The notes under the pieces were generated by a model. The model saw only the letters and a program-made list of their open reading frames with translations, had not been told where the DNA came from and made no database searches. A DNA stretch of 63,905 nucleotides, the filler included, from Folioceros fuciformis (taxonomy: Eukaryota): the NCBI GenBank assembly GCA_049999805.1. It is 12 parts of 12 records of this genome, joined end to end, with 100 filler letters (N's around TTAATTAATTAA, not from the genome) between each part and the next. Parts side by side here need not be neighbours in the genome. Positions count along the whole stretch, not along the records: positions 1 to 11,565 come from JBNGIO010003973.1; 11 more parts are not named here. One strand, given 5' to 3'. Below are positions 3,170-61,168 of the stretch, one piece after another (position 1 is the stretch's first letter; each line of letters starts with the position of its first letter). A program made the position numbers and the translations under genes.

Positions 3170-3725
3170 AAGTGCTCCATCAGCTCTAACTTGCTCCCAT
3201 GAGCATGACTCACTTTCTTTTCGACGACGTTGTTCTTGCAAGATTGCTAAGACAAGGCATATTCGGGACTGTTCTTTTCATGACTCCCCAAATCTTGCGA
3301 ACTTACTGCTTTTCACGACAGCTGATAGGAAGCTGTTATGACGGTTTAGGGTTTAGGGATATGTTCATTCTGGAATCGAGATTGCCAGGACTCCTGAGAC
3401 TACTTCCACCACTATGCTCGAGCACAAAAGAAGGTAAGGTGAGTTCACATCCATAGCTTTTAGTTTGTGTCTTAGAACAATATGGATAATAGTTATTATT
3501 CCCTTTTATTTCATTAATTTGGAAACATAGTTATTACGAACAATAAACAAATTCAAGTATAAGGAATAGGTACTCCATCATCTCTAACTTGCTCCCATGA
3601 GCATGACTCACTTTCTTTTCAATGGAGTTGTTCTTAAACTGCAAGATTGCTAGGACAAGGCATATTCGGGACTGTCCTTTCCGAGACTCCTCGAATCTTG
3701 CCAACTTGTTGCCTTTCACGACAAG
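3170..3725 (+). repeat. Diverged ~150-bp direct repeat pair (about 3170-3325 and 3570-3725)
   Basis: Both copies share ctctaacttgctcccatgagcatgactcactttcttttc and acaaggcatattcgggactgt. Confidence 0.85.
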
Positions 3726-3729
3726 TTGC

Positions 3730-4880
3730 AGACCCCACCTCTCCTGCCAATGGAGTTACTGACGCCGCCTCTCCTACCAATGGAGTTGCTAATGTCGCCT
3801 CTTCTGTCAATGGAGTTGATGACACCGCCTCTCCTATCAATGGAGTTGCAAACACTGCCTCTTCTGTCAATGGAGTTGATGACACCGCCTCTCCTATCAA
3901 TGGAGTTGCAAACACNNNNNNNNNNNNNNNNNNNNNNNNNNNNNNNNNNNNNNNNNNNNNNNNNNNNNNNNNNNNNNNNNNNNNNNNNNNNNNNNNNNNN
4001 NNNNNNNNNNNNNNNAATGGAGTTGATGACACCGCCTCTCCTATCAATGGAGTTGCAAACACCGCCTCTTCGGTCCCATGCAGTTGCAAAGGCCACCTCT
4101 TTTGCCAATGGAGTTGCTAACCCCACCTCTCTTGCCAATGGAGTTGCTGATGCTGCCTCTCGTGCCAATGGAGTTGCTAGCGGTGCCTCTCCTGCCAATG
4201 GAGTTGCTAGCGGTGCCTCTCCTACCAATGGAGTTGTTGACACAGCCTCTCCTATCGATGGAGTTGCAAACACCGCCTCTCTGACCCCATGCAGTTGCAG
4301 AGGCCACCTCTCTTGCTAATGGAGTTGCTGACGCCACCTCTCCTATCGATGGAGTTGCAAACACCGCCTCTCCGGCCTCGTGAAATTGTGGCGGTCACCT
4401 CTCTTGTCAATGGAGTTGCCGACACCGCCTCTCCTGCCAATGGAGTTGCAAATGGAACCCTCCGGCCTCATGCAACTGTGGCGGTCACCTCTCTTGTCAA
4501 TGGAGTTGTTGACACCGCCTCTCCTGCCAATGGAGTTGCAACGCCGCCTCTCCGGCCCGATGCAGTTGTGGAGGCCACCTCTCCTGCTAATGGAGTTGCT
4601 GACACCACCTCTCCTGCCACCACCTCTCCTGCTAATGGAGTTGCTGACACCACCTCTCCTGCTAATGGAGTTGCTGACACCACCTCTCCTACCAAAAGAG
4701 TTGTTGACGTCACCTCTATTGCCAACAGAGTTGCTAACGTCACCTCTCCTACGAATGGAGTTGCTGACATCACTTCTCCTACGCTGACGTCACCTCTCTT
4801 ACTTAATATTGCTAACACCACCTCTCATGCCAATGGAGTTGCTGACGCCGCCTCTACTACTAATGGAGTGGCTCACGCTG
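3730..4880. repeat. 30-bp minisatellite (consensus cctctcctgccaatggagttgctgacaccg), about 30 units
   Basis: AATGGAGTTG recurs mostly every 30 nt; translates to SPANGVADTA repeats; contains a 100-N gap. Confidence 0.95.
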
Positions 4881-5152
4881 CTTGTCCTTCCAATGGCGAC
4901 CCTCGGTCTAGAGCAACGGGGACGCACGGTGTAGAGCAACGGCGACGCTCGTTCTCGAGCAATGGCGACTATCGCTCTAGCAGTGGCAATCCCTGCCGAA
5001 AGGACGCTCTGTCAAATAAATTACAAATAAAAAGAAAAAATTATAACGCAAACAACTTTTGATGTGATCAGGGGTCTCAAACCTAATGCCAAGGAGCCTA
5101 TTCAACCATATTTGGCCTTCGTGCCACATAGCTCACTGGCCACTTTGTTCTT

Positions 5153-8100
5153 TCAGGGTCTACCCTTACAACTGCAACACCCAGCTGTGAAACGATGCAC
5201 ACGGTACCCATCCCTCACAACGATGTCTCTCTGTTCAAGCCTTGACATGATCTCCGTGGAACTGTGGCAGTCGCTGCACATGCGTAGATTCTTCGTTATC
5301 ACCAGAGGTGTGCCACTCGGAGTGTTCAACAGACCGAACGCCAGAGCTAGCTTCTCAGCGTGCCCACAAAGCAGATCCTCCTTCTCCTTCTCACAGGCTG
5401 GCTTCAGCACCAAGTTTGTGTGAGGTACGTGGCCACCTTCCTGCTGCAGCCGTGCATAGGTGTTATCCACCTTAGAGGCGATGTCACTTCTCCTTTCTCC
5501 TACCAGAAACCTGTGTACCTCATTATTCACTTCAATGGTTACCATCGCGGGTTTCTTGTTAGCTCCTGCTGCTGCCCTTCTCTGTGTTTCAATCCTGTCT
5601 ACATCGGTCCACCTACCTGCATCGGCGTAGGCATTGGCCATGAGCACATACGAAGACGCCGTTTGAGGCTCCAGCCTGACGATGCTTTCAAAACACCGCA
5701 CCGCCCTCTCTATATCCCCGTGACTTTTGCAGGCATTCAACAAGCAACGCAAGCCCACAACATTACTTTCGCCCTCACAAGATAATAGCATCTCCTCTGC
5801 CTCGTCTAAATGGCCAGCACGCCCAAGAAGATCTATCATGCACGTGTAATGCTCGACACTAGGTTCGATGCCATGCTTTTCAGCCATGGAATCGAAGTGC
5901 TTGCGACCCTCGTGGACAAGCCCCGCATGACTGCATGCTACAAGAAGGCAAGTGAAAGTCGAATCATTAGGTTGAACACCGGCAACCAACATCTCCTCAA
6001 AACAAGCTTGTGCCTTGTGACCCTCATCACAAGTACCATACCCAGATATCATGGCGTTCCATGTCACCACATTCTTTGTGGCCAAGCTGTCGAAAACCTG
6101 GCGTGCATCTTCCAGTTCACCACATTCTGCGTACATGTCCACCAGGCAGGTGCCCACCACTACGTCGGCGAGCAGTCCTCTTTCCACAATCTGTGAGTGC
6201 AGCTGCCTGCCCCTCTGTAAGGAACCAGTGCTTCCACAGGCCTTCAGAAGGCAAGCAAAAGTAACATGGTCAGCCAAAATGAGGCCCGTCTCCTCCATTT
6301 GTCCATACACAACAAGCGCTTCATCGCCGAGTCCTTGCTGTGCATACCCAGCAATCAAGGCATTCCATGTCACCACATCCTTTGAGTTCATGCCGTCAAA
6401 AACATTGTGTGCATCTTCCAGTTCACCACATTTCACATACATGTCCACCAGGCAGGTGCCCACCAATACGTCATTCAGCAGTCCTCTTTCCACAATCTGC
6501 GAGTGCAGCTGCCTGCCCTTCTGTAGGGCACAAGTGCTTGCACAGGCCTTCAGAAGGCAAGCAAAAGTAACATGGTTACCCAAAACCAGGCCCTCCTGCT
6601 CCATTCGTCCATACACAAGAAGCGCCTCTTGGCCAAGTCCTTGCTGTGCATAGCCTGCGATCAGGGCAGTCCATGTCACCACATCCTTTTCGGCCATGCT
6701 GTCAAAAACTCGGCGCGCATCTTCCACTTCACCCAATTTTGTGTACATGTCCACCAGACAGGTGCCCACCACTACATCATCCAGCAGTCCTCTCTCCACA
6801 ATCTGTGAGTGCAGCTGCCTGCCCGTCTGTAAGGCACCAGTGCTTCCACAGGCCTTGAGAAGGCAAGCGTAAGTAGCTTGGTTAGCCAAAAGCAGCCCCT
6901 CCTGCTCCATTTGTCCATACACAAGGAGCGCCTCCTGGCCGAGTCCTTGATGTGCATACCCAGAGATCAGCGCTGTCCACGTCACCACATCCTTCGAGGG
7001 CATGCAGTCAAAAACCTGGCGCGCATCTTCCAGTTCACCACATTTTGCATACATGTCCACCAGGCAGGTGCCCACGACTACGTCATCCAGCAGTCCTCTT
7101 TCCACAATCTGTGAGTGCAGCTGCCTGCCCTTCTGTAAGGCGCCAGTGCTTGCACAGGCCTTCAGGAGGCAAGCAAAAGTAGCATAATTAGCCAAAAGCA
7201 TGCCCTCCTGCTCCATTTGTCCATACACAAAAAGCGCTTCATGCGCGAGCCCTTGCTGTGCATACCCAGCAATCAGGGCTGTCCATGTCACCACATTCTT
7301 GGTGGCCAAGCTCTCAAAAACCTGGCGGGCATCTTCCAGTTCACCACATTTGGCATACATGTCCACCAGGCAGGTGCCAACAAACAAGTTCATAGGAGCG
7401 CCACTCTGCACCACATCATAATGCACTTTTCTGCCAGATTCCAAGTCGGTGGCAAATGCACAGGCTTGAAGGGCGGCAGAAAAGACGTGAGAATCGGCCA
7501 TCACTCCTGACCTACGCATCTGATGGTAGAGTTGTATGGCCTCCTTAGGTTTCCCATGCTTGGCATGAGCAGAGATAATGGCAAACCACAAAAAGACATT
7601 TGGTTTGCCGACCTTGGTGAATACAGCCATAGCCTCCTGCAGCCTACCTCTACAGGCATACATGCGCAAGATGTGGTTACCCAAGTATGCACTCGAGCCA
7701 TATCCAAGTTTGGCAGCCAGATTATGAACTCGTCGCCCCACAACCAAATCCTTCTTGGCTGTACATAGTTTGAGCACAGCGGATAACACAGACTCAGAAA
7801 CAGCAGACTCTGTCTGTGTCAGAGCTTCCAGGGTTTCAACGGCCTCGGAAAGCTTCCCCTGCTGGCACAACATGCTCACAGTTCCTGCTCTTACGACGCT
7901 CATTTTCAATCCTGTACGCCTCCCATGTTCAATCTTATTCAAAGGGCTGAACTCCGAAGGAGCGGCACCATGGCCCATATCCGTATCCAAGAAACTGAGC
8001 TGCTCATCAACCCAAGGTGGCTTGAACATGTTGTTCACCCACAGCATCTCGCCGGACCCCTTACGCCGGAAGTCAGGCACACGGGGGCTCATCTTACCTC

Positions 8101-8374
8101 GTCTGTTGTCCCACCACATAGTAGGGTCCAGAAAAAATTGTTGCCACAAGTGCTCCTGCTCCTGGCAACGCCCATCGCTGGAAAACCCGCCCGTACCCAC
8201 ACTCTCTCGCGAAAGTGGAAGTCCTGGGGTCCTCACGCTGCTGTACCTCGAGGCTTCGTTTGGAAGGGGTTGAGCCCCTACGATGAGGTGAGCGGAAGCT
8301 CCTGGTAGAATTCCTGTACACACACCAATTTGTTGGGTCCACAACGGGACCGGTTGCCACACTGTGGCCATCAT
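5153..8374 (-). CDS. PLS-class PPR protein with E domains and DYW:KP (GRP-type) deaminase domain, plus N-terminal PDF motif; candidate organellar U-to-C RNA editing factor
   Basis: Uninterrupted 1073-aa ORF with about 20 P/L/S repeats, P2-L2-S2 (CSHAGLV...EHYTCMIDLLGRAG), KKPAMVTIEV, HAEKLA, CSDCH and C-terminus CSCKGRP. The true start may lie in an upstream exon (possible acceptor at 8385). Confidence 0.96.
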   Translation of the reverse strand: MMATVWQPVPLWTQQIGVCTGILPGASAHLIVGAQPLPNEASRYSSVRTPGLPLSRESVGTGGFSSDGRCQEQEHLWQQFFLDPTMWWDNRRGKMSPRVPDFRRKGSGEMLWVNNMFKPPWVDEQLSFLDTDMGHGAAPSEFSPLNKIEHGRRTGLKMSVVRAGTVSMLCQQGKLSEAVETLEALTQTESAVSESVLSAVLKLCTAKKDLVVGRRVHNLAAKLGYGSSAYLGNHILRMYACRGRLQEAMAVFTKVGKPNVFLWFAIISAHAKHGKPKEAIQLYHQMRRSGVMADSHVFSAALQACAFATDLESGRKVHYDVVQSGAPMNLFVGTCLVDMYAKCGELEDARQVFESLATKNVVTWTALIAGYAQQGLAHEALFVYGQMEQEGMLLANYATFACLLKACASTGALQKGRQLHSQIVERGLLDDVVVGTCLVDMYAKCGELEDARQVFDCMPSKDVVTWTALISGYAHQGLGQEALLVYGQMEQEGLLLANQATYACLLKACGSTGALQTGRQLHSQIVERGLLDDVVVGTCLVDMYTKLGEVEDARRVFDSMAEKDVVTWTALIAGYAQQGLGQEALLVYGRMEQEGLVLGNHVTFACLLKACASTCALQKGRQLHSQIVERGLLNDVLVGTCLVDMYVKCGELEDAHNVFDGMNSKDVVTWNALIAGYAQQGLGDEALVVYGQMEETGLILADHVTFACLLKACGSTGSLQRGRQLHSQIVERGLLADVVVGTCLVDMYAECGELEDARQVFDSLATKNVVTWNAMISGYGTCDEGHKAQACFEEMLVAGVQPNDSTFTCLLVACSHAGLVHEGRKHFDSMAEKHGIEPSVEHYTCMIDLLGRAGHLDEAEEMLLSCEGESNVVGLRCLLNACKSHGDIERAVRCFESIVRLEPQTASSYVLMANAYADAGRWTDVDRIETQRRAAAGANKKPAMVTIEVNNEVHRFLVGERRSDIASKVDNTYARLQQEGGHVPHTNLVLKPACEKEKEDLLCGHAEKLALAFGLLNTPSGTPLVITKNLRMCSDCHSSTEIMSRLEQRDIVVRDGYRVHRFTAGCCSCKGRP

Positions 8375-11244
8375 CCAGGGACCGCTGTGACAAGATGAGT
8401 CTTACAACAGACTATGGCAGCATGGCAGGATTCCCAGGTACTGTGTACGACCACACCAAGCAGTCGTACGGGGAGCTTGGATGTGCATGGGAAAGACAAG
8501 GCCGCTCACAAACGCGGCCCCTCCAGGCGCACTAGCCCGCAACAGCCTTCAGACACTAGCCCACAATAGCCTTCAGCGCATCCACGCCAGGGTTGGCGAC
8601 TCTTCTTTCTTGGCCTGGAATCCCACCAAAGTGTCGGGTCAGGAAGAAGCTGTGGCAACAACTCCTCCGAGCCACGACTCTGTCTAGACGATCCCTTTCC
8701 ACCCGGACCTCGTCCAGGACAGATTGGCTGCTGTGCACCATCGCGGGAGCTGTCCACTTGATTGCGCGTCAACAGCAGAATCGAGCGCTGTGAGTCCTTG
8801 TAGGTTATTCAGGCTGGAAGGCGCAGCCGGGTCTTCAGCACTTCTCTCATTACTGTCAAGCGTAGAAGAACAAGTGGTGAAAAGAATTCTATTAGAGTCC
8901 ACTTCGGACGAATTTCCATCATGTAGCCCAGCCACTACATCATCACCACATTTCCGTGAGTTCTTCATGTGGCACAGGGACAGGAGCTATGGAATACCAA
9001 ACAGGAAAGAGAGTATCTGTGTTCTTTCACGACAATGCTGAGAGTCGGGAGTCCGCTGTGGTCCCCAAACCACCGCTACCCCCCTTGCCGAAGGAGACAT
9101 CTGGGGGCTCATGACGACATAGCGCACGAGATCTCCGATTTCGCGTAGCTTCTACCAGCACTTGTTTTTTTCCACAACCATGGAACGCGAACGCGCTTGG
9201 ACTCTCCACTAACGCGCACGCACTCACTGCGAACTCGCCTGCCTCCGGCCACACTCACGCTAGCGTTTGGGTTGCTCCCCGTGGCGTGGTTTCCCCACTG
9301 AATTCGCTGGCCACAGGCAGGCTGTGCGGCATGGATGCGGTTTGGACGTCAAGGGATGTGGCTTGGACGTCAAGAGGCCCCGTGGCTACAGAGGGTCTGA
9401 GGCTCAAAGCCCATCCCCTCTCTCCGCCCGACGGCTGCTGCCAGCCTTCGGCCATGGACCTTGGTTTCTGGGCAAAGAGCTTGGTCACCACTTCCATTGG
9501 GCCTGGCGCTCTTTGGTTGCGATCGTCTATGCAAACTGAGGGCTGAAAAAGTTGGGGATTCACCGCTTCCACTGCACTGAAACCGTGTCCCTACGTACGC
9601 GCGCTTCCGTGCGCCTGTTGTGTCTGCTTTGGTGCACTGTCTGGTTTGTAAGGATGCCCAAACCGGATGTCGAGTTCCCGGGAATGGAGGATGGATATCC
9701 CGGCAGATACCCCATGAGAAAACAATAAAGTATGTAGAGAGAGGGAGTGTATGCCATACAGGAGCTGTTCTCTTAAAAAATGAAGACGTTGTCCTTCAAT
9801 TTCTCTTTCGTGATCGCTTTCCATGGGTCCACTTTTCATTCGTTGATGTGGCACATGAGATTTCTCTGAGGTTCCCATATTAGCTTCGGAGGATGTTCCC
9901 TCCCGGTCAGGGCCTTGGGGACCAATAGAGGTATTCAGATCAGCCACTACCCATCGCCCATGCTCTGTAGCTGCTGAAATCTGAGCTAGTTGAACTTCCG
10001 GTACGCGGATTGTGATCAGATGTGTTGATCAAAAGTATCATCATCCAGTCAGACTTATCAAGAATCTTGCTTGACTAAATAGCGCAAATCGCTTGACTAA
10101 GCACGGTAGATAGCAGGGACGAGTCCACAGACACTATGCCATGGTGAATAGTGTATCGTGGAACTCTCCTGAAGAACATCAGGAATAGTCTGAACGAAGC
10201 CGATTCACGAGCTGGTGAAACCCAACCGCCTTCACAATCGCCACTTCCGGGCCTCCTCGGTGGCAATTCAGGAGCAGCGCTCCACTCCAGTCGAAGCCAT
10301 GGATCAGATTCTGTAGATGGGCTTTGCGCAGGCTGTATTGCACAATCTACAGCAGCAAGCCCGAGAGAAAGCCACCGACGAGATTACGTTTGGCAAAACA
10401 ATACTCGGATCTTGTTGTCGGATACCGGGACTCTTCTTACAAGTGATCCTTGTTGTCCCCGTAGGTTATTGCAAGTCTAAATGAAACCAGTGCCTCAGGT
10501 CGTGATGGTGTTACACCCTGTGCTCTAGATGAGACTAGAAAACGTGACAACGCTATCCTCGACAGTGCACTTGCCTGCACATGTTCATGTCTTGACCTGC
10601 TAAGACCACAAGGATTCTTGAAGTGATAGCTTCCAACGACTCATCTGAAGTTGTTGATTAAGCAGCGACTTGGGACAGAAATGTTGCTATAATTTCCAAC
10701 CACCGACATCGAGCGTACGTAAACTACAAATCCTCCACGAGTCCCACTGGATACGTTTCCTATTGGTAGAGTCGGTCCATGAATCCTTTCAGAACTGATG
10801 GAAGGACGTGGACGTGGAGTCTGTTGAATGACAGTATCGAAAGCAGACGCCGGAGTAAAACAATTGGGACTCTTCCCACTAAACTACAAAAAGGTTGGCT
10901 CCTTGTCGCCCATCCTACTGCAGGTCGTACATTGATTTCGACAGGCTTGCACAGCAGACGAGAAAGTATGATGGAATGCGCCAGAAATTCGTCAGGACGT
11001 ACTTCACACCACAGAACACGACGTGAAACGCAGTGTCGTGAATGCTGGAGACCGCACAACGGCTTAGACCGGAGTTGGTGAGTGAGTGCAGGACACAAAT
11101 GAGGAACCGTTCCGTGCATGTGCTCTGTTATGCTCAAGACGCGTCACAGGAGGCAAGCGAAGGAAGCACATCGAAGTCGGTTTGTGAATTTGGCACGCAC
11201 TTTTCAATTTCCGGGTAGATCTGTCTCCAGTGAGGCAGGGCCCC

Positions 11245-12430: not shown

Positions 12431-13962
12431 GAACGCGTCATTTTCGGCGCTCACCTTTGCGCCCGCTCCACTCCGCTCTTCTCGCGCGAATCCAGCTGCT
12501 TTGCGTTCCGGCTAAGCTCCGTGCCGCGCGCTACAGGCTTTTGCGTTGCGCCCAGTTTCAGGTTGCAACGTGTTGCGAGTGAGTGCTACCCTTAGGGCCG
12601 GATTGCTGCTGGTGTACTATTGCAATCTATTGGTGACCGCTATCGCCCACCTATAAATGCTGATGGGTGTCCCAATGTCTATTGTTATGTGTGCAGATTT
12701 GTTGTCCTGCTACCAGGTGCGCTTCGGTGCGGGTGCTGTAGTGTGCCCCCCCGCAGTCCGTGCCGGGGCAATTACTGAAAAGAATATGGCCAGAAAAACA
12801 TCGGCACACGCTCTTCGTGTGGCCAAAAGAAGAAAAATGGCAGCAATGCGTGAAAGGGAGGCACTTAGCAAGGAGGCTGCCCGTGCTCGCATGTATTGGT
12901 ACCGTTAACATGTGGTGTTTTTGTAGATAACCCTACACATGAAGACTCAGGAGTCGTGTCTGCACAATATCCAGGATATGATAACTTCGATGTCGAAGAA
13001 GATGATAAGTCGGAGGAGTCATGGGGCGCCATGAAGGGTGATGTGACCTCCCAGCTGGCTGTATGTGAGGGGAGCCTAAGCTAGAGGTCGCACCCAAGTG
13101 CAAATAGCCCCCACCTTGAAGAGGTAGAGGCTAGCAAAGGGGAGCCTCTTATGAAAAAAGAGAACGATGGAAATGAGAAGAGTGAGTAGGAAGATAGGTA
13201 GGGGTACCTATATATGTAAGCTAAAAAGCTAGCATATTTCCTAATAAAAATCTACTTCTATTGTAGGTATAGATAAATGTGTAGCACAAGCTTTGTGAGG
13301 TTTGCCATACCACTACAAGTGACCCAAGGAAAAACAAGTACAAAAAGGAAAGTACCAGCTTCCTATCTACCAGCTGGGAATCTATTTAAGGCTACCTACA
13401 TGATATTTCCAGATGACCATGAGGCTCCTATGGAGTATATATGTGACAAGAAAGGAATAAAAATGATGTGGCTAGGTGCATCCCCATGTGAAGAATATGG
13501 AAGACATATTAAACACCTATATAGTAAGTGTCCTAACCACTTAACTAAGTTATTCACATCATTTTTGTCACTTAACCAATGAACTTTGATGTAGGATCCT
13601 TTTGGGCATTAGAGAGAGAGTAAGGAGTATAGTGAAGACTACTTAGAGTTATCTATGTGGTTTATAATTAGATAAACTTGACAGTTAGATTAGATTTATA
13701 TCTATTGTTTTATTTTCTAACATCTCACGTATGTAATGATATTCAACAGCTATCAGTCCTAGAGTGGAAGACAAGGTTTCTAGCTAAGGCTATTGCTCCC
13801 TGACTATCACTGAACAGAGGTGTGGGCTCATTTTGAGGATAACACAACTCACTCAATGCTAANNNNNNNNNNNNNNNNNNNNNNNNNNNNNNNNNNNNNN
13901 NNNNNNTTAATTAATTAANNNNNNNNNNNNNNNNNNNNNNNNNNNNNNNNNNNNNNNNNNNN

Positions 13963-16050
13963 TTCCCCAAGGTAGCAAATAACACCTTCTCATTCTTGGC
14001 TCTTTGATGCTGCCCCCCAAGTCTATGGTGGGATTGCTCTTCATGAAAGAGTGCACCAGTAAGCTCGCTGAATGTAAGTGTTTGTGTCTGCCCAACGGAG
14101 ACTGCAGCCACAGAAAATCTCAAGGCAGCTTTCTGGGTTGAAACAAAACTCTGATAAGGGGGAGGAAGGCTGGACAGTAGCTGAGCAACCACTTCGTTCT
14201 CAGTAAGTACACTGCCCAGAGAAGCTAATTGAGCTCTTAACACCCTGAAGCGACTGATATGTACAGCAATAGAATCACCTTCTTTCATCCTCAAAGAATG
14301 GAATTCATTCCTAGCAGCAACCAGAGTAAGGATGTTCTGCACCTGATAAGTTTCTTTGAGCTGATTCCACACTGCTGCTGCAGACTCTAAGTATTCAACT
14401 TCTGTCACCGTGGCTTCATCCAGGCCAGATAGAAGAATAGCAAAGGCAATTTTGTTGCCTTTGTTCCACATAGCAATCTCATCAGCAGTTGGTTGGACCA
14501 GGGCTGATGCTGGAGTCTTGCGAGGATCAGGCATAGTACCATTAACGTACTCCCACACATCCCACGCATCCAGGTAGGCCTTCATCCGAGCTCGCCAACC
14601 CTCATATCTGGTTGGTTTTCCATCGAACCGATCCTTTTCTTTGAACTCTCCTCCATAGCCACTAGGAACATTAGTAGGAATAGAAGATGACACAATCGTG
14701 TTAGCCATAACTGCAGCTAACTGAGGTTGTGCTAACTGAATTGCCATTGTGACTTGTGAGGGATGGTTCAACAAGCCTACATCGTCAACAAAGTCTGATG
14801 CTAAGACTAGCCGAGCTAACGACTCAGACAAAGAATCAAGATCTAAGTTGTCCTCATCCATCCATCAAGCACAAGGGCCGGTTAGACTTTCTCCGCTGTT
14901 CCATGTTAAGTTTCAGCCGGCAATGTCAAGAGCCAACAAAAAAACAACAACTTAAATTAGTGAAACGATAAGCCAGTCTATAGACGCAAACCGGTACTNN
15001 NNNNNNNNNNNNNNNNNNNNNNNNNNNNNNNNNNNNNNNNNNNNNNNNNNNNNNNNNNNNNNNNNNNNNNNNNNNNNNNNNNNNNNNNNNNNNNNNNNAG
15101 ACATTCCAGGCACCAAAACGACACCAGCCGCACTCGCGTCTGTCCAGATCTGCACCGAATTTCTCACAGCGGAGGCTTGTTGTAGTGACACATGGGCACA
15201 GGCGTATGTGATACATGATACGCCTCGCCAGATCCTCGCAACAGGCAGGAGCAGACACGAATTGCCTATGAAGCTTGTACCAAGATGCTATCTTCACCAA
15301 AAACTTCAATCAATTCAGCAATTCTGACCGCAAAACTGTCTAACCATCTCTCATGTTTGATTTGGCTGGCTGTCCAGCAAACGCCTGAGGAGGAACTCAA
15401 TGGATTCAAGGCGAGAAATTAGTGTCGATAGCACAGCGTCAGATATTTTATGTCTGAGAACTTTGCGAACAACTTTGCTTGAATGAAATCCAGTATTTTG
15501 TCGCCTCTTAGAGTCACCAAAGTAATTTTGTCGTATAGGGTAGCCACCCTGTTTACTGACTCGATCAGGCCTACTGAAATCACAGCGCTGTCTCCACCAA
15601 AAATGAGGCAGCAAATCCTCATTAAGCCGCCTCCCGCCTCGTGCCATCGAACCAGCAACTCAGAATCATCAAACACTAGAATGAATTTTCCCTTGAATTC
15701 CTCATTCAAAAGAAACTAAACACAAAAGCATCTACATGAGATGTATATTTCCAAGCATATATAGACACAGCTTATATATGCACAAATATCAATATCCAAG
15801 GACTAGAAAAACCATGACTAGTACTCGACAGCATTTTTCAAGGTCTAAGGAATTTTTGTGTCTAAAAAAAAGACCATGGCTCTGATACCATGTCAAAGTT
15901 GCGGAAGCATGAAAACTAAAAATAGAAAATAATCAATTAAAATATTACATAGGTGGTATTTTAAAGGTTTATGACTAACCCTGGTTAACTAACCCGTGTC
16001 TTGGTTAAATAACCCATGTTGGGTTAATCTCATTAATAGCCAGCTACCGA
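13963..16050 (-). mobile_element. Ty1/copia 5' portion: LTR end, tRNA-Met PBS (15879-15890) and gag ORF (13963-14861)
   Basis: Minus strand reads ...TGACA TGGTATCAGAGCC. gag has EFKEKDRFDG..YEGWRARM, LRMKEGDSI and LLSSLPPPY. Left boundary of the LTR is uncertain. Confidence 0.85.
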
Positions 16051-20367: not shown

Positions 20368-20840
20368 NNNNNNNNNNNNNNNNNNNNNNNNNNNNNNNNN
20401 NNNNNNNNNNNTTAATTAATTAANNNNNNNNNNNNNNNNNNNNNNNNNNNNNNNNNNNNNNNNNNNNGGACCAGACAATGTTCTTGTCTCGACCGCGGCG
20501 GTGAGGATGTGTCTTGTCCGAGTGAACCTTCAGGCGGTTGTTTCCTTTTGACATGACATCAAGAACGAACGGCAAAGCAAGGCGCCTACGTTTGTGGAAT
20601 TCTCTTCAGTCTCGGCATCTAGATTTCCGAAGATGCTTTCTGGAGAACGCGCCNNNNNNNNNNNNNNNNNNNNNNNNNNNNNNNNNNNNNNNNNNNNNNN
20701 NNNNNNNNNNNNNNNNNNNNNNNNNNNNNNNNNNNNNNNNNNNNNNNNNNNNNTCTCTCTGAGGTGACCAATGTGAGGTTGTCGGCCTGATCAATCGACA
20801 TATCTCCCATTTTGCTCCCTCAGATTAACAGTCAGACACG

Positions 20841-22894
20841 ATGTCAGTCGAGCGCCGACGCGGAGGGCAAGGTGATCTCAGTGCAGGAGGAGGAGGCTTT
20901 GGAGAAGGTGGCAGCGGGAGCGCGGGAGGCACTCTAGACAGTTCTCCCCCTCCGACTCCCTTTGCCGTCTTACCTCAGCCTACTTATGTTGCTGAATTCA
21001 AAGAGCGTGATCGCTTCAATGGTACCAAGTTTGAAAGCTGGCGTGTTCGTATGACTGCAGCCCTGCAAGCAAGACATGTGTGGGGTGTGGTAGATGGGAC
21101 AATTACGAAGCCGTCAATAACTTCCACATCAGAGGAGAAATCAAGGTGGGAGAACCTGAATAGTGTCGCTCGTGCGGTATTGATCAGTGGTCTCGATGAA
21201 GTTCTCCTCCCAGATGTGGCATTTATTTCTAAGGCTGAGGACATATGGAACCAACTGCTGCAAACTTATGAAGTAAAGAACATTCTCACCATGTGTGCTG
21301 TGAGAGGCGAGCTCTTTTCTCTACGACTCAAAGAGGGAGAAAAAGTTTCACCTTTCATTCTTCGTTTTCGTCAGCTTCGAGCACAATTGATCCATCTGGG
21401 TTCATCGTTTCCAGATTTGGATGCTGTTGCTCAGTTACTTACTAGTCTGCCTCCTAGCTACCAACCGTTCGTGTCCAGCTATGGGTCTACCCTCCGTGAA
21501 GCTGACAGAGCTGTTGCCTTAGGTCTTCCTTCGCGCATCAATTTCACTGATGTGGTCGGTGCTTTGCTGCAAGAGGAGCAAAGCCGTGTTAGTTCCACAC
21601 AGCATACGGGACGCACAAAACTTGACAAGGTCCTGTATGCTAAGAACAAGAACACACGAGGCAGATTTTCACCTGGTGCTTCAACTTCGAAGCCTTCAAC
21701 TTCCCAGAAACGAGTAGGTGCATGCAATTGGTGCGGTATCCAAGGACACTGGGAAAGAGAATGTAGGAAGAAGAAATCTGGTGAGCCCCGTCGAGTTGAG
21801 AAGCCTGTTCGTCCGGCTGAAGCTCACGTGACTGCAACCCGAGATCGTTCTTCTTCCCTTTCCAGCAAACCTCCCGTTGTGATGACGGTTTGCTTGGCCT
21901 CCTCTCTCCCATCTCTTCCACACGTTTGGTACCTAGATTCAGGTGCAACCTCACACATTTGCAATGATAAATCGCGATTTACTCACTACCGGTCCTCATC
22001 TTTACGAGATAAGGTCCTCTTGGGTGATGAGATAACACGGACAGGTCTGTCCATCAGGGGGAGTGGCACTTGCCGTTTTCGTCTTCTTGATGGCTTAGTC
22101 CTTCACTTGGATCATGTGTTGCATGTTCCTCATATGGCTAAGAATCTCCTTTCTGTTAGCCAGCTTCTATCCTTGCATCAGCTTGACCTGTACTTCACTG
22201 CCATAGGATGTGTGTTAGTGAAGAAAGGGGGAGATAGACAAGAGGTCGTTGCTGATGGCAAATTAGTGCATGATCTTTATCAGATGAATCTAACATGCGT
22301 AACTAGGGATTCGATCAATTCAGCACGTCTTTCTCAAGCTGCTGTTGCTAGTCTTTGGCATGCCAGATTAGGTCATGCTAACCGTGATAAACTGATTAGG
22401 CTTTCTGGTCTTACCTGTTATAGGGAACCCCTGCCAAAATGTTTCCAGGATCTTCCTTTATGCGATGCATGCGTAGTTGCTAAACAAAAGGAGCTCCCCT
22501 TCCCTAGAACTGTCGCTCATCGTGCATCCAGTGTGTTAGAGTTGGTGCACGCTGATATATCTGGTAAGATACATATTCCTAGTTTGGGAGGAGCCCAGTA
22601 CTACTTTACACTTACGGATGATTATAGCAGGTATTCATGGACTTACCCCATCCGGTTGAAGTCCGATACTTTCAGTGTTTTTAAGGACTGGCTGCCTGTT
22701 GTTCAGAAGCAAACTGGTTGTTCCTTGAAGTGCCTCCGATCAGACAACGGGACAGAGTTCGTACACTCTCACTTTACCCAATTCCTTACTGATCATGGCA
22801 TACTTCGGCAGTTGATTATTCCCTACACCCAGCAACAGAACGGGGTCGCGGAAAGACGAAATCAAACACTGCTTGGAATGACAAGGAGTATGCT
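20841..22894 (+). mobile_element. Intact Ty1/copia gag-pol ORF, cut by the scaffold end
   Basis: More than 680 stop-free codons: gag, zinc knuckle CNWCGIQGHWEREC, protease WYLDSGATSH, LWHARLGH, integrase ELVHAD..DDYSRY..RSDNGTEF..QNGVAERRN. Confidence 0.96.
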
Positions 22895-24249
22895 NNNNNN
22901 NNNNNNNNNNNNNNNNNNNNNNNNNNNNNNNNNNNNNNTTAATTAATTAANNNNNNNNNNNNNNNNNNNNNNNNNNNNNNNNNNNNNNNNNNNNTTAAAT
23001 GCACAATCTAATGTACACTCATTTGAATGTAACCTACATCAGAAGCTCTAATACCATAAGAAATTACATGCAGATGTAGATTTATTATAAAAATAACATT
23101 GTATATATTCAAGAAAAAGAGAGTAAGTAAAACATTAAAACTTAAACTTAACTATTCATGAATGGGTGTGACTATTACTAACAGTCGTAACCCTAGCGAA
23201 GAGGTAAGTCATTTTAAACTATACACACAATATGAAACTGGATATAATATAACCCTNNNNNNNNNNNNNNNNNNNNNNNNNNNNNNNNNNNNNNNNNNNN
23301 NNNNNNNNNNNNNNNNNNNNNNNNNNNNNNNNNNNNNNNNNNNNNNNNNNNNNNNNACCGCCACTACCGTGTACAAGAGGCCAGTTTGAGGCCTCGGAAA
23401 AATGAGCAAGAAACCAGCTAGTCATTCCGACCTTGTGGAAGCCTAGCGATGGCCATTGCTAGACAGGAGGTCAAGCCAAGCGAGCGCACATAGTGTTCTG
23501 AGGGTGTCGGTGCAGGTGGTGGATCCTCAGTAATCAGAAATCGGGAATGAATCGGGAGGAGAGACCTCACCGAGTGGGAGACGAACTCCCCAGCTATTCC
23601 TGTGACGGTTTCGTGGAGTGGTAAAGGTGCTGGAGGCCAAATTCACGAGTTCGGAGTGAAAGTGGATACCCCTTCCCTTAGCCTCCGGTGACCCACCATT
23701 CCTTCAATTTTGGAGGGAAGAGAGGCCCTAGAAGGCGAGGTGGAGGAGAATGTCGAGAGTCATGAGTGGGTTGAAAAATGAGAGGGTGTGTGTAAGAGCG
23801 CTGATGAATGTTTGTTGGTGGAGAAAGAATGCAGGTCAGAGTGACTGATGTTGCGAAAGCGGTGAGCAGCCGTGGGTCGTGAGGGTGGCGGTGTTAGAAG
23901 GAAGGGGTTGTGTGCTTGAATAACTATGGTGATTGTGTGTGTGTAAGCCTAGGGTGTGGCGAGGGTTGAGCTGAGGAGTTGATCAGTAGGTGTGTGGCGC
24001 TGTGACGAGGTGGTCGTGGTTGACAAGAAAGTGCACGGAGTAAAAGGGTGTGACGAAAGCCAGATGTGCCTATGCGCTGAGACGGAATACCGTGAGGTAA
24101 AGAGATGATTGTATGTGTGTGAGATTGAGGCAAGGGGACACGCGAGTGGGTGTGTGAGACTGCTAAGGATGGGAGTAGAATATGGCAGTGGACGAGACGG
24201 CGCTGACTAATTAGGAGCCGTATATGAACGTGAACGAGTATATGAACTA

Positions 24250-52599: not shown

Positions 52600-55419
52600 G
52601 GAGAAAGCAACCCAATTGGGCCCTGTTGTGGATCATACACATGTGGATACGGCGTAGGATTAGAGCAGCACATTAGGGCACGGTTCGCCGTAGACACAAA
52701 TACTTAAATACTTTAACAGTTCGAGTAGTTAACGTAGTAGATACGAAACTGCTTAGGAGTTACGGTAGTTACAACTGCAAATTCTGTATATAAAACTCAA
52801 CGTGCTTAATGTAAGATTGTCCAATCCAGTCCTGGCCAACTTAGCTACATGGTATCAAAGCCGTAGCGCTCTTCGCTGCACGGCGCACGCCCTCTATCTC
52901 ACGCCATAGTGCGACATGGCTTTTGTGCAACCATGCAGTGAACCGAATCTAAGATCATGAGACGCAAGCCATTATGCCTCACTGATGCACGGAAGCAAGT
53001 TATGCCCCTATTCACCATGCACAGTAGTCCTAACGTACAGCAACATCATCGACGCGAAGATGAGAATTGACACAACCCGCCACAACCATTTGTGTCAACT
53101 GCCTTCAACACGTTCATTCTAAAGGCACTACACGCTGTCAACGACATTTGTTATTAGCCAAAAAAGCAGCCTACAAATCATAGCCTTCCCAGATCAATTA
53201 GAAGTCAGCTTATCCTCATCGAATCACAAATGGAGGCCCTCCATATTGCCATCACAAACCTACACGCAAAATATAATACACACTTAGAGACCCTCTAAGT
53301 CAACTGTACGAAGAAGCTCATTGAATCTACTCAGCCAGCAGCCATGAGTAGCACAATCATAAACACTTTTAAAGTAGAATTTCACGACAGAGATTGCTTT
53401 AATGGGAATGACTTCGACATTTGGCAGATGCGTCTAACAGCGCTTCTTGAAGAACACAATTTAATGGGAGTTGTGGATGGCAGTATGCCAATCCCCTCAC
53501 TTACTTCTTCTCCACTTGCGTTAGTTGTAGACATACAGGCTTGGACTAAGAAGGACAAGCATGCAAGGAGCATTCTTATATCTACTATAGACAAGAACAT
53601 GATGCACCACACACAAGGTCAACAAACCTCGAACGATGTGTGGAACACCTTCAAAGAAATGTTATAGGCATAAAGTTCAATGTCCCTGATCAATGCCACA
53701 TGGAAATTTTATTCTTTGAAGATGAAAGACAACAAAACCATCAAACAACATATCAACAATTTCCGTTCAGCAAGAGCAAAGCTAGCCTCAAGTGGCACAA
53801 CTCTTACAGAAACACAGGCAGCAGTAGCCTTACTAACCTCTTTGCATGCTTCATACAGGACTTTTGTCAGTTCTCAGAACCCAGCACTCCTCTAAGCAAC
53901 TCAACCCGGCAGCACATCCACCTACACTCTCACAATTGTAGTCGGAGCCCTACTAGAGGAAGAATTGAGCAGAGTAGGTGTCGCCAAACCCAACACTAGT
54001 GTTGGCCATGCTCTGTTCACTTCAAGCGGAAGAGGAGGCTTTCAAGGCAGAGGACGAGGAAACTTTTCAACTAGAAAGTTTTTCAACAAATCTAGACAAC
54101 AAGGTGCATGTCAGAACATGTACATCAACAAAACAAGCAATAAGTGAACAACAAAGGGAACCTGCAACTGGTGTAGAATCCCTGGCCATTACGAGCACGA
54201 ATGCCGAAAGAAACTTGCTGGTGAACCCATACAAGAGACATCACGAAATGAAGTTGATGCTACGACTAGCGGCAGAGCACCTTCCTCCATTTCCATATTG
54301 GCAGTCTGCCTCACTCTCACAAGGACAGACACAAGTAGATGGTTTCTCGACTCAGGAGCCACTACTCACATCTGTAGTTGTAAGGATATGTTTACCTCTT
54401 ACCACAATGTCCTATCTGATCAACATGTGCTCTTGGGCGATGACAATGCACTTCATGTTGAGGGATCTGGAGAGGTACATCTAAGATTGTCGATAGGCGA
54501 ACTGCTTATCATCAATGGAGTCCTACATGTCCGTGCCATGACAAAAAATCTTCTCTCAGTTAGGAAACTCGCAGCTGAACATGACTTGGTCATCAAACTC
54601 CAAGGTAATTATTGTACCATACATCATTCCAAGGATCCCCATTATACAACTCTAGCACACAGCTTACCCTTCAATGACCTTTACCTCCTAAACATTCAAT
54701 CAATTTCTTCTCTTCTTGTTGACAGTTCAGCTTTCAGCCCTCCTAGTGAGTTCCTCCTTTGGCACTGTCGCGCTGGTCACATGAACCCCAGTACCTCAAC
54801 ATGTTATCAAACCCAAGCATGTATAAAGAGCTAGTTAAACTTAAAGTCCCCAAAGACTTTTTCTGTGAAATTTGCCAATATGCTAAGCTCAGCCAACTTC
54901 CTTTCAAGGATTCCTCACCTACTCGTGCTCGTCGCCTTCTTGAGGTCGTCCACTTTGACATTTGTGGACCAACGAGTACAACATCTTTTGGCGGCTACTC
55001 ATATTTCCTCACCTTTCTTGACAAGTGGAGCCACTTCTGTCATGTCTACATTCTCCGCCATAAAGATGAAGCCCTTTCATGTTTCTAGGACTTTCTCCTC
55101 ATAGTTGAACGTCAAACTAGCTTCACATTGACCATCCTGCGTATAGACAATGTAGGTGAATACACTAGTCACTCTTTTCATGAGTTTTGCAAGTCAAAGG
55201 GCATCCTCAGACAGTTTACCATACTTTATACTCCAGCTCAGAACCCCTTCATCGAAAGATTGAATAGATCCTTGCTCGACATGTCCCGTTCTCTCCTTAA
55301 ACTCGCAGGCCTTACAAAGGGGTACTGGGCAAAAGCCGTTAGTACTTCAAACTATCTTAAAAATAGATGCCTACCAAAGACCTCCTTCATACTACCCCCT
55401 TCGAGAGGTGGAGTGGCAC
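52600..55419 (+). mobile_element. Decayed Ty1/copia: LTR end (52849), PBS 52850-52862, gag, protease, integrase
   Basis: CA-TGGTATCAAAGCC; EFHDRDCFNG; CNWCRIPGHYEHEC; WFLDSGATTH; EVVHFDICGP; RIDNVGEY. Confidence 0.92.
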
Positions 55420-56310: not shown

Positions 56311-59300
56311 CTAACGCTGTGTATACAAAGTTGCATTAAAAAGAAAAGATAGTGCACATAGTTCTTGTAGGTTCGTGAACACGCGCGCAGGTGACACACG
56401 ACAGTTATTTGTGTAACTACCTTCTAACTTTAACTACTTATTTTAGGTTAGAAGTTTGACATTATTATATGCTAAATAAGATGGACCGAATATGTGAACA
56501 CCCCCACTTGAGGTCCTATCTTATACTATTAAAAAAAAAACTTCTAATGTCAATCTTACGCTTCACTCTTTTTCCGATCCGCCAATCGCTTAAGACCTTG
56601 ATTGCGGCGCTAGCTTGGGTTGTTACAATCTTCGACACTGTAGTTGCAGAGCTTGAAGCTGCCCTAAAAACATCAGTTGTTGATGATCACCCGCCGCCAC
56701 TCAAACCCTCAGCCGCCAGCCTCTCCGACACGATTCAGGCAGAAGCTACTCCTCCCTTCATCTGCAGGAAGACAGGGTTTTACATTTTGCGAGTGGGAAT
56801 TGATGACGAAACTTCACCTGGCACTAGTCGGAAAACTTCTACACAGCTGACAGTTTGTTGATGGATGGCGTGTAGGCAGATAGTCTGCTGTTACTTCTCA
56901 CAGGCTGATATGCCTAGTCTATTTGCATGTTTGTTGTGCAGCTCTCTAGGCAGGGCTTTGGTCAGTAGATCTGTAGGGTTCTCAGCTATAGGAATATACT
57001 GGACTGACATCTGATCGTTGCTCACCACTTCTCTTATGAAATGGTGATATATTTCCATATGCTTCACCTTAGAGTGGAAAACAAGGTTTTTTGATAGCGC
57101 AATGGTGCCCTGATTATCACACTGAAGAACGGTGGCGCTTGGTTGCTTCATCCCAACACCAGATAGGTTCCTCCTGATCCAAATTGCTTCTTTCGCAGCT
57201 ACTGTAAGTGCTTTGTATTCAGCTTCCGTGCTGGAAGTTGATACAGTTGCTTGTCTCTTGCTTGTCCAAGCGATCGGACCTCCTGCCAACAAGAACACGA
57301 TGGCTGATAGGGACGACTTGCTGTCCAAGTCAGACGCCCAGTCTGAGTCGCAGAAGCCCTCCAACGTTAAAAGCTCCTCCTCTGTCCCAGTATATGTAAT
57401 TCCATGTGTCGGGGTGGATTTCAAGTATCTGAAAGTTCTTTTTACTTGGCTCCAATGCTCAGGGTGAGGATTTTCTAAGAACTGTGACTCCAGGCTTACA
57501 GGAAGGCAATATCTGGTCGTGTAACGTTTGACAGATAGATTAGGGTTCCTACTGCATGCCGATATGGTGTCCTAGACATCTCTTCAGCTTCTTCAGGTGA
57601 CATGGGAACCAGGCTCTTCATCAGTTTCAGTCCTATGGCCAACAGAGTGGCACATCCATTCGCATTCTCAAGGTTAAACTTCTTCAAGCAATCTCTGACA
57701 TACTTATGCTGCGAGATGGAAAGTTTTCTTGCCTTCCTATCTCTTGCAATCTCAATTCCAAGGCACCATGTAAGTTCCCCTAACTTTGTCATCTCGAATT
57801 CCTTTGTGAGAAGTGATTTAACCTTCTGCATTAAGCTCCCTTTGCCTGTGGTTGCAGCCAGAATTAAGTCATCTACGTACAACAGAAGTATTAGGAAACT
57901 CATGTCCTCAGTCATGACATACAGTCCTGGGTTAGCATCACCCTGCTTGAAGCCCATCCTTTTTAGATAAGTATCTAGCCGCTGATTCCAAGCTCTAGGG
58001 CTCTGTTTAAGTCCATACAAGGTTTTCTTTAGCTTATAGACTAGATGCTCTATCCCTGGCTTCACGTAGCCCTCAGGTTGCACCATGTACAAGTCTTCTT
58101 CAAGAGTACCATGTAAAAAAGCGGTCTTAACGTCCATTTGCTCTAAATCCAGGTCCATATGTGCAGCTAGGGCAAGAATCATCCAAAGGGTTGAGAACTT
58201 GACAACTAGAGCGAATGTGTCAGTAAAATCTATGCCAAGAATCTGAGAAAACCCTCTTGCCATCAGCTTTCATTTTTCGCTTGAAGACCCATTTACTTGA
58301 GGTAGGTCTTCTACCCTGTGGCAACTCCTCCAATGTCCAGGTTCCATTTTTAACTACTGATACATACTCATCTTCTACTGCCTTCTTCCACTGTCTTGCC
58401 TTAGGTCCTGAATATGCTTGTTGTATAGAGACTGGTTCAGCAGGATCGAAGGTGGATGCCACCATAGCTTGGACAAACCACGTGGACGGGGTTGCATGCC
58501 CAGCTGAAAATACATCTTCACTGTCCACCTCAGCAGGTGCTGGTACTAATGCAGGTGCCCCAACTGTAGGCACTTCCAAGGTAACAACACTACCAGCATT
58601 TGACTTGTCTACCTTTTGTTTCTATAATTTAGTCCCCCTAGCTGGCCTCCAGTCTTCCATCTTGAGGGGAGGCTCCTTCCACGGCCTGTTTCTTTCATGC
58701 AGATTATATGAGCTTCTCAATTGTGAAGCAGGTACATCAGCAATGGGCACCTCCTCTATGGGCTCTGCTGCTTCCAATTCTTCTGTATAGGTGTCAGGTC
58801 ATATACTATCACCCTTGACTGCAGGCTCAAAAACATGACAATCATCATCCTCGCCAGATTGACCAAAATATGAAACTTCAAACTGATCTACATCAACATG
58901 ACTCAGAATGGGTGCCCCATCAACTGGATCATTCTCGTTAGGGTCCTCAATAGTCTCAGGTAGAACATTTTTACTTCTATCCGACTCAATGGAGGCAGTA
59001 GGAGAATGCATCACTCGTCGTTCATCAAAAACTACACTACGTGCATGGCTGACAATGCATGTCTCAGGGTCATACTTGTGTGCCCTGTTGTGCAGCTTCG
59101 TTGTCCTTTTAGGCTTTGGAACAAACGCATATGCTAGAGCACCGAAAATGCGAAGGTGCTGTATTGCTGGTTTTCATCCCCACCACGCCTCAAATGGCAT
59201 CTTGCCAGGTAACACTCGAGTTGGTAACGTGTTGAGCAAATAGTTAGTAGTGTTCATGGCCTCAGCCCAATATCGCCTAGGAAGCCTAGCTTGCTTAAGC

Positions 59301-59757
59301 AAAGCCCGAGCAGTTTCTTGCAACAACTGATTCTTCTTCTCTGCGACGCCGTTGAGTTGAGCTGTGTAGGGGACTGTGAGTTGCCTCATGATGCCAAGAT
59401 CCCAACAATATGCTTTAAACTCACCAGAGATGTACTCCTCACCATTGTCGGATCGGAGGCATCGCAAACTATGACTAGTTTGCCGCTCACCCAAGTGCAG
59501 GAAATCTTTGAAGTGCTGAAGGGTTTCACTCTTGTACTTTAGAATGTATAAAGTGCAGTAGCGAGTGCAGTCATCGATAAAAGTGAGGAAATACGACCCA
59601 CCACCAATGGAAGGTACTGGAATCGGGCCACAGATATCCGTATGCACGAGTTCTAGAGGTGTGGAGGCACAATGAGCACCTATCTTGTCAAAAGCAGCCT
59701 CATGATGTTTCCCATAGATGCACGACTCACATAGCGGTAAGTCCCTATGGACTCCAC
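56310..59757 (-). mobile_element. Ty1/copia pol (integrase, RT, RNase H), PPT 56501-56510 and 3' LTR
   Basis: ELVHTDICGP, IDDCTRY, QLNGVAEK; QMDVKTAFLHG, LYGLKQSPRAW, LYVDDL; EGFCDSDWA, STEAEY, CDNQG. Minus strand AAGTGGGGG then TGTTCA. Confidence 0.95.
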
Positions 59758-61168
59758 ATGCTGAACAGACCCCTGGGAAATAATAGGTTTTCGTTTTTCT
59801 TTTTTTGATCTGTGAGTGAGTGCTGTAGAGGAAAGGTTGGGAGATTAGGTTAGAATAGTAGCTAGATTTGTGGTGAGTCGATAGGGTAGGTAGGTTGTGT
59901 GGTAGATAGGACACGGGCTCTGGTTCCTCAGGGTAAGGTAACGGAGGAATAGGACACCCTAGGACGTCATGGAAGGCGAGCCAGGGGGTCCTCTGGCTGT
60001 TGCTGGGAGAAGCAGGAGATGGAGATTGAGGTACTTGGGGCCGAGGACCTGGGAGCAGGCAGCTAGGTTGGTGGCTGTTGGGAAGCTTAGGCCGCAACCT
60101 AACCCGGTCCAATCATGCAGGAAGCAGAGGTGGTGTCGGATTGGGGCTAGGCGACGCTGGGAGGTGGGTCAGTCCGAGTCTAGAGGGCAGCGAGGCCGAA
60201 GATGGCCGTGGGGTTACAGGTCTCTAGGGCTGTTACTGGAACAGTGGGCGGGTTAGGTGGCCAGGCAAGGCGTGAGCAGTCCCGTTTAGGTCTAGACATA
60301 GCATCTGAGTAGGGTGCTGGACCCGGAAGCGAACAAGGCTGGTGTGTGGCCTCAGTACATATGGGTGGCTAGCAAGGCGGGTGGTGGCGGCGCATCCAAG
60401 CTGGCCTGGATGGACCTGAGCCAGCCCGAGAGTTGGGCTGGCAGGGGTTATTCACGACCGGAGCCAGGTAGTCTGGGAGCTCGAGGGGTAGCCAGCCGGC
60501 AGGCAGACCAGCTGATTGGAGTGGCTAGCTAGCTTAGGTAGATGGCAGCGATGGCAGCAGCCCAGGGGAGCTCCTTGACGGGGGAGGATCCAAGAGACGA
60601 GCAGATCCGGGCCGAAGCCGAGACCGGGTAGTGGCGGCGGTGGCAGAAGGTAGACCCGACCACAGCAGGTGCCAGATCGCCGGCTGCTATAGAGGGGACA
60701 ACCAGGCTGGGCCATGGCGACTTTGGAGCTGGCCGTCGGTGGCCAATCCAGGCCGGTGTAGGCTGCGAATGGGCAGCTAGCAGGGGATCGGCAGCAACTA
60801 GGGTCCAGGCCGCACCAAGCGGGCCGGGGAGACGATGGATCCAGGTTCCAGGTAGGCGCCGCCATCGGCTGGTATCGGTTAGATGGTGCTGGGGTAGATC
60901 TGGGCAGCCAGCGTGGGTCGGTGGAAGCTACGGGGCTGCCTGTGGTGCAGTCGGTTTCGTGGTTCTTGCGAAAAGCTGCAGCATGTTTTCTGTGCTCACC
61001 ATAGGGGAAAGAGCTGGGCCATGGCGAGAAGCCACCTGGTAGGGCTGGCCGATCTAAAGCAAGCCAAGCTGCTGCAGGTGAACAGGGCAGGCCGGCTTGG
61101 AACCGATTGGTGATGGCGAGTGCTGGAGGCAAGCCGAATCGGGGACACACATACCTCGCTGGGGCAGA

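Follow-up and report, generated by a model that had tools for sequence, protein, structure and literature searches.

The PDF motif of plant OSB proteins spans about 50 residues and is marked by a conserved Pro-Asp-Phe (PMC6963530); it occurs in one to several copies C-terminal to an SSB-like OB fold (PMC6963530, PMC4166229, PMC6451138). According to reviews, the PDF motif of AtOSB1 is sufficient for binding of single-stranded DNA (ssDNA) (PMC6963530, PMC4166229). The PPR-DYW:KP proteins, on the other side, are candidate U-to-C RNA editing factors of hornworts, lycophytes and ferns (PMC9478123, PMC11845758). Here we describe a gene of Folioceros fuciformis whose predicted product combines features of both, with a PDF motif N-terminal to a PPR array and a DYW:KP-type domain at the C-terminus. 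The gene lies on the minus strand of a 63,905-nt stretch of DNA (the window), along which all positions below are counted. Its stop-to-stop open reading frame (ORF), 5153-8401, contains 1082 codons without internal stop codons or N runs, and the first ATG is codon 10, at position 8374. The translation of this ORF, P0001, consists of a presequence, one PDF motif, a linker of ~20 residues, a PLS-type PPR array, an E motif and a 133-residue DYW:KP domain, in this order. We regard this identity and architecture as nearly certain. The features of the gene are as follows, with ORF residue numbering.

5153..8374, minus strand: intronless coding sequence of the PDF-PPR-DYW:KP protein, from the first ATG to the stop codon at 5153-5155 (ORF and translation; Pfam PPR, E_motif and DYW_deaminase)
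8180..8374, minus strand: N-terminal presequence, residues 10-74 (predicted local distance difference test score (pLDDT) below 50 at model residues 1-64; residue composition)
7976..8179, minus strand: folded PDF module, residues 75-142 (profile match and AlphaFold2, pLDDT 88-96)
7997-8158, minus strand: PDF profile match, residues 82-135, enclosing the span 8009-8155 of an initial annotation
7919..7975, minus strand: flexible linker from the PDF module to the first PPR helix, residues 143-161 (model residues 135-152 with pLDDT below 50)
5750..7918, minus strand: PLS-type PPR array, residues ~162-884 (Pfam PF01535, PPR_2, PPR_1 and PPR_3; helix pairs in the model)
5555..5749, minus strand: E1/E2 (E motif) region, residues ~885-949 (Pfam PF20431 E_motif)
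5156..5554, minus strand: DYW:KP-type deaminase-like domain, residues 950-1082, 133 amino acids (PF14432 and KP criteria)

The initial annotation, made from this DNA alone, had placed an OSB-type PDF motif ahead of the PPR array and in the same open frame. Positions 8155..8009 of the minus strand (ORF residues 83-131) read HLWQQFFLDPTMWWDNRRGKMSPRVPDFRRKGSGEMLWVNNMFKPPWV, an exact match to its text, and the PDF segment, PPR array, E motif and DYW domain share one frame with no stop codon between them, as it had stated. Residues 82-135 include ..PRVPDFRRK.., with the Pro-Asp-Phe signature, of which the P, D and F are invariant in 18/18 aligned motifs. Across the whole motif, W, P, W, D, R, K, PDF, L, P and W are likewise invariant in all 18. 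The PDF motif of P0001 is net basic and aromatic-rich.

A phmmer search with a 67-residue fragment against 1.84 billion representatives returned 646 proteins at E<=1e-3, 189 at E<=1e-10 and 18 at E<=1e-30. The PDF motif is present in multiple copies, up to 13, in many of these relatives. Word-indexed protein searches with the same fragment and with residues 60-165 of P0001 gave no matches, an effect of their 5-residue word filter. Ten relatives were scanned with Pfam; six reached the curated cut-off for SSB (PF00436), two matched below the cut-off and two gave no match. The relatives listed in a profile search included OSB1, OSB2 and OSB3, so named in many angiosperms and one conifer. A hidden Markov model (HMM) of the PDF motif was constructed from 110 motif instances, all from listed proteins with an SSB-like domain, excluding P0001 and all PPR proteins; the instances had originally been gathered with P0001's own fragment as the query. 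The consensus of this model is KEELWKDLFANPSEWWDNRKSKKNPKAPDFKHKDTGEALWLNSSAPKWVKSKLE. It matched P0001 at residues 82-135, over HMM positions 1-53 of 54, with 70.9 bits and an E-value of 1e-19, scaled to a proteome of 30,000 proteins (Z=30000). The initial annotation had named a missing PDF HMM match as one of several outcomes that would refute it; the match obtained supports the motif.

A six-frame scan of the whole window with the same model gave only two matches below E 0.7, the ORF 5153-8401 (E 5e-22) and a half-motif upstream of the gene (E 0.0047), described below. A chance match, or a location of the motif in an intron, is ruled out by the open frame, the six-frame scan and the HMM score. 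The PDF motif has no Pfam model, and Pfam detected nothing in the first 220 residues of P0001 except a sub-threshold PPR_1. Because the profile derived from OSB-architecture proteins matches over its full length, and because named OSB proteins are among the relatives, the identification of this segment as an OSB-type PDF motif is secure at the level of sequence.

PDF motifs also occur in green algae (Sanguina aurantia P0007 and Ulva P0211), in agreement with reviews placing the motif across green plants, and in metagenome proteins (the P0139 cluster); one metagenome PDF protein is named single-stranded DNA-binding protein. In two angiosperm gene models the motifs are joined to other parts: in Coptis chinensis P0049 (1526 aa) to a kinesin motor, and in Striga hermonthica P0058 (1063 aa) to a protein annotated as an ICR2-like interactor. 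These two may be merged gene models rather than true fusions.

In the remainder of P0001, Pfam detected 13 PF01535 stretches at residues ~166-880 (E 2e-102), the PF20431 E_motif at residues 894-957 (E 2.1e-12) and the PF14432 DYW-family deaminase at residues 990-1080 (E 1.9e-32). PLS-class editing factors are defined by this organization, in which an E motif and then a DYW-family deaminase domain follow the PPR array. The array comprises ~20 motifs, as judged from its length. Within it, Tandem Repeats Finder (TRF) detected a 306-bp tandem unit at 6037-7378 on the minus strand, with 4.4 copies and 86% matches. This unit equals one P-L-S triplet of 102 codons, and the repeat pattern indicates recent internal amplification of the putative RNA-reading modules. 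Pfam found no SSB or OB domain in P0001, while an SSB-like OB fold precedes the PDF in the OSB family. Since P0001 has no such domain, and the rest of it is PPR, E and DYW, it is not an OSB protein.

DYW:KP domains are distinguished by KP in place of PG, Ala or Cys in place of the Ser of HxE, and a variable C-terminal triplet (PMC9478123, PMC11845758). They are 132-133 residues long, and their sole universally conserved Lys is at position 88 (PMC11845758). The P0001 domain opens with KPAMVTIEV, which aligned with PGCSWIEV of two Diphasiastrum DYW:PG proteins. It carries HAE, with Ala for Ser, and CSDCH (CxDCH), keeping the CxxC. It extends over 133 residues from KP to the end of the protein, has K at position 88 (KNLR), and terminates in the triplet GRP rather than DYW. 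The two Diphasiastrum proteins aligned alongside have PG, HSE, CGDCH and GDYW. By the published criteria, the assignment of the P0001 C-terminus to the DYW:KP type, which the initial annotation had also made, holds. P0001 is accordingly predicted to possess a catalytic domain of the U-to-C type; the U-to-C activity of natural KP proteins is itself unproven (PMC11845758).

The PDF motif was modeled with AlphaFold2. Modeling of the motif alone, with an 18-row alignment, gave a small fold of a helix, two to three short strands and a helix, with a mean pLDDT of 88.4. A context model covered 411 residues starting at the ATG, with 32 homologues in the alignment; its numbering begins at the same point. 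Residues 1-64 of this model had pLDDT below 50, residues 66-133 were confident (block means 88-96), residues 135-152 again had pLDDT below 50, and the PPR helix pairs began at model residue 153. In these models, the PDF appears as an independently folded module between a disordered presequence and a flexible linker, ahead of the PPR solenoid. A PDB sequence search with the PDF profile gave chance-level matches only (E 0.7-0.96, chlorophyll-binding proteins), and Foldseek, queried with the PDF model, retrieved 0 PDB matches at E<=0.001, leaving no known fold assignable. The presequence, ORF residues 10-74, is presumed to be an organelle-targeting or disordered region. The first 72 residues of P0001 include 8 S, 5 T, 9 G, 7 P, 4 R, 0 K and 4 D+E.

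The PDF-PPR fusion is not restricted to this locus. In the phmmer search, the motif lies ahead of a PPR array in 8 of the 150 listed representatives. The profile search, in which names were retrieved, gave 1650 proteins at E<=1e-3 among 8000 candidates. The best 120 of these 1650 were listed, with multi-copy proteins ranking first, and 27 of the 120 contain PPR Pfam families together with 1-3 N-terminal PDFs. These 27 comprise 24 proteins of Diphasiastrum complanatum, one of Adiantum capillus-veneris, one Pteridium aquilinum transcriptome ORF and one other. One PDF-PPR protein was also found in Selaginella moellendorffii. All 33 distinct representatives that were fetched contain 1-3 N-terminal PDFs followed by a PLS array (one PDF in 11, two in 15, three in 7). 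Among them, only P0181 and P0212 have a DYW domain, of the PG type; in the others the protein stops at the E motif or close to it, or the gene model is truncated, and none of the 33 has a KP domain. None of the PDF-PPR relatives has a database name beyond hypothetical or generic PPR protein. Two of the representatives are Pteridium transcriptome ORFs carrying both PDF and PPR, and the fusion therefore exists at the transcript level in a fern.

The fusion is therefore neither singular nor tied to reverse editing, and a KP-specific fusion is ruled out by these representatives with E or DYW:PG ends. The initial annotation had held that PLS-DYW editing factors normally have nothing but a transit peptide before the repeats; this fails for lycophytes and ferns, in which 1-3 N-terminal PDFs are borne by dozens of PLS-E proteins and by two of the PLS-DYW:PG type.

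P0001 is collinear with the PDF-PPR relatives from their PPR-proximal (last) PDF through the array, at 37-50% identity. For example, P0001 residues 77-953 align with P0178 residues 268-1158 at 43.6% identity over 908 columns. Because the collinear alignment crosses the boundary between PDF and array, the junction itself is homologous. Trees of the PDF motif were constructed from 109-114 motif instances and 53 columns, and had few supported branches. On these trees the PPR-borne PDFs group together, with 4 label changes compared with ~35-37 in shuffles (0/500 shuffles as low). The OSB-type PDFs of Adiantum group with conifer and other OSB PDFs, apart from the PPR-borne PDFs of the same fern. 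Constraining all 64 PPR-borne PDFs to one clade gave a likelihood above that of the free quick search and was not rejected (p-AU, from the approximately unbiased test, 0.81). The tree results fit a single old fusion followed by internal duplication, which we take as an indication only. P0001 belongs to an old PDF-PPR family of lycophytes and ferns, unrecognised by annotation, whose members end in E, DYW:PG or DYW:KP.

The second match of the six-frame scan lies ~500 nt upstream of the gene, on the same strand.

8596-8690, minus strand: upstream PDF half-motif, ..LLPDPTLWWDSRPRKKS.., in a different frame and in an ORF without ATG (HMM positions 2-26, E 0.0047, six-frame)

It is matched by 14/14 homologue N-termini, with a best E per query of 2.9e-4 to 0.042. 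Given that relatives bear up to three PDFs, we read the half-motif as what probably remains of a second, decayed PDF repeat.

In the bin 8034-8187, which overlaps the PDF segment, the summed contig depth is 981-1375 in all three runs, compared with 8-29 in the bins just upstream at 8188-8957 (~30 to 100 times), and long contig pieces stop at 8077 and begin at 8141-8151. The peak would fit a PDF core common to many loci of the organism, but is only a hint, as summed depth does not equal copy number. A run guessed to be RNA covered the intergenic 8141-9060 at a depth equal to that of two DNA runs, and behaves like DNA.

We propose that the gene encodes a PLS-class organelle RNA editing factor, and that the mature N-terminus would keep the PDF module. 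PPR arrays bind RNA in parallel, with the N-terminus toward the 5' end, which would place an N-terminal PDF on the 5' side of the PPR footprint and well away from the edited base. There it may act as an accessory, sequence-unspecific clamp on single-stranded nucleic acid, which would add affinity or residence time and hold the target unfolded, while the DYW:KP domain would act on a U 3' of the footprint. This role is favoured because the motif is net basic and aromatic-rich, and because its sole reported activity is binding of ssDNA. MORF genes are confined to seed plants (PMC13386178). In lineages without MORF proteins, the PDF could serve as a cis-acting helper. We favour the clamp tentatively, as falling somewhat short of probable, with both nucleic-acid binding by this copy of the motif and an RNA ligand being presumed. 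The wider proposal is doubtful, if possible: that PDF-PPR proteins are unrecognised ancient organellar editing factors of seedless vascular plants, derived from one fusion before the lycophyte-fern split, with the PDF as a MORF-like helper or as a physical coupling of C-to-U and U-to-C editing to ssDNA at the nucleoid, making editing co-transcriptional.

Several points weigh against these proposals. OSB1 and OSB2 reportedly prefer ssDNA over RNA (PMC4166229), which would favour a DNA tether over an RNA clamp. The parallel-binding geometry and the MORF analogy are reasoned from PPR proteins in general. The PDF trees, with their 53 columns and few supported branches, limit what can be said of a single fusion. 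P0001 keeps one PDF, compared with up to three in its relatives, and with one copy left and a decayed half-motif upstream, the module could be in the course of loss in this lineage. No basic residue occurs among positions 1-38 of the presequence, and loss of the motif on import is possible.

The main alternative, already raised in the initial annotation, is that the PDF tethers the protein to the nucleoid. It would bind ssDNA (the non-template strand, R-loops, or replication and recombination intermediates) and concentrate the editing factor for co-transcriptional editing. ssDNA binding is the only biochemical activity reported for the motif, OSB1 and OSB2 reportedly prefer ssDNA over double-stranded DNA and RNA (PMC4166229, PMC6963530), and the motif is conserved in PPR proteins to the same degree as in OSBs, with the key residues invariant in the 18/18 aligned motifs. 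However, PPR editing factors are not known to act on or at DNA in any lineage. The PDFs of PPR proteins also form their own cluster apart from the OSB PDFs, and their ligand preference may therefore have diverged. We consider a tether rather unlikely.

It is also improbable that the segment has no function in the mature protein, being cleaved with the targeting peptide, lying upstream of the true start, or belonging to an unexpressed retrocopy too young for its frame to have decayed. The decayed upstream half-motif is compatible with this, as is the position of the intronless gene among copia-type elements, a setting of retroposed PPR genes (PMC13386178). However, the gene has 1082 open codons with all catalytic signatures intact, and the motif scores as high as those of OSBs. 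Targeting peptides diverge fast, whereas this motif is kept in PPR proteins of both lycophytes and ferns, and Pteridium transcripts bear the fusion. A start at the next plausible Met past the motif would leave no presequence before the first PPR helix.

Least probable is a role in protein contacts instead of nucleic-acid binding, in which the PDF would recruit partners such as OSBs or further PDF proteins, or would bring several editing factors together. Avidity would be consistent with the tandem arrays of some relatives (up to 13 copies) and with the 1-3 copies of PPR proteins, and AtOSB2 is a tetramer (PMC6963530), but reviews assign ssDNA binding to the motif itself (PMC6963530, PMC4166229), and the motif is net basic and aromatic-rich.

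The single-strand clamp remains the role that we favour. The tie between the PDF module and U-to-C editing in particular is weak, given that E and DYW:PG ends accompany the module as well as DYW:KP.

The surroundings of the gene were also inspected. The intronless PPR gene lies among copia-type polyprotein ORFs, and a comparable setting has been described for retroposition-driven PPR expansion (PMC13386178). A search for a poly(A) remnant past the stop codon, as a mark of retroposition, showed only an AT-rich patch ~100-140 nt downstream. ORFs resembling Ty1/copia-type gag, integrase and reverse transcriptase are present at 13911-14864 (minus strand), 20829-22946 (plus), 54148-54834 (plus) and 56891-60112 (minus), some of them broken by masked N runs. 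Within the window, the PPR gene is the sole ORF of at least 200 codons that is not transposon- or repeat-like. Just past its 3' end, 3654-5062 on the plus strand contains long frames of repeated peptide (..MELxTPPLLS.., ..ANGVADTTSP..), which look like a minisatellite and not a gene.

A full-text literature search, with most subscription journals and supplements outside its coverage, found no paper linking the PDF motif or OSB proteins to PPR proteins. The terms 'PDF motif' and 'pentatricopeptide' occurred together in one paper only, which reviews the replication of mitochondrial DNA. The main text of a 2026 kingdom-wide survey of editing-factor domain fusions (PMC13386178) contains neither 'single-stranded' nor 'Diphasiastrum', and does not mention the PDF. 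The initial annotation knew of no description of this fusion, and the search agrees with it; the PDF-PPR family appears to be undescribed. Pfam has no PDF model, and Pfam-based surveys would therefore leave an accessory domain unannotated on dozens of lycophyte and fern editing factors.

PPR editing factors are under intensive study, both as biology and as programmable RNA editors. If the module aids substrate binding or sub-organellar placement, the view of editosomes in MORF-less plants would need to be revised. The fusion would also offer a second context in which to study PDF motif function, and the PDF would be a testable add-on for designer PPR editors, including the poorly performing KP-type U-to-C editors.

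P0001 can be compared with several known systems. It shares with the OSB proteins the ~50-residue motif and its signature, W..F..P..WWDNR..K..P..PDFKHK....LW.....P.WV. In OSB proteins the PDFs, 1-3 or more in number, lie C-terminal to an SSB-like OB fold, whereas P0001 has a single PDF N-terminal to a PPR array. With the PPR-DYW:KP proteins it shares the PLS array, the E motif and the 133-residue KP domain (PMC9478123, PMC11845758). P0001 adds the PDF to this plan; the available text of the papers on these proteins mentions no N-terminal accessory domain, and artificial tags only, on designer KP proteins (PMC9478123). The MORF/RIP, ORRM and OZ helpers or fusion modules (PMC13386178) would be comparable to the PDF by functional analogy only, as accessory parts that could strengthen RNA binding by PLS-type factors. 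MORF acts in trans on L motifs and has no kinship with the PDF in sequence or fold, whereas the PDF of P0001 is fused in cis at the N-terminus. The PDF-PPR proteins of Diphasiastrum, Selaginella, Adiantum and Pteridium, like P0001, have one or more N-terminal PDFs, a linker and a PLS array. These relatives have 1-3 PDFs and E, truncated or DYW:PG ends, whereas P0001 has one PDF and a DYW:KP end.

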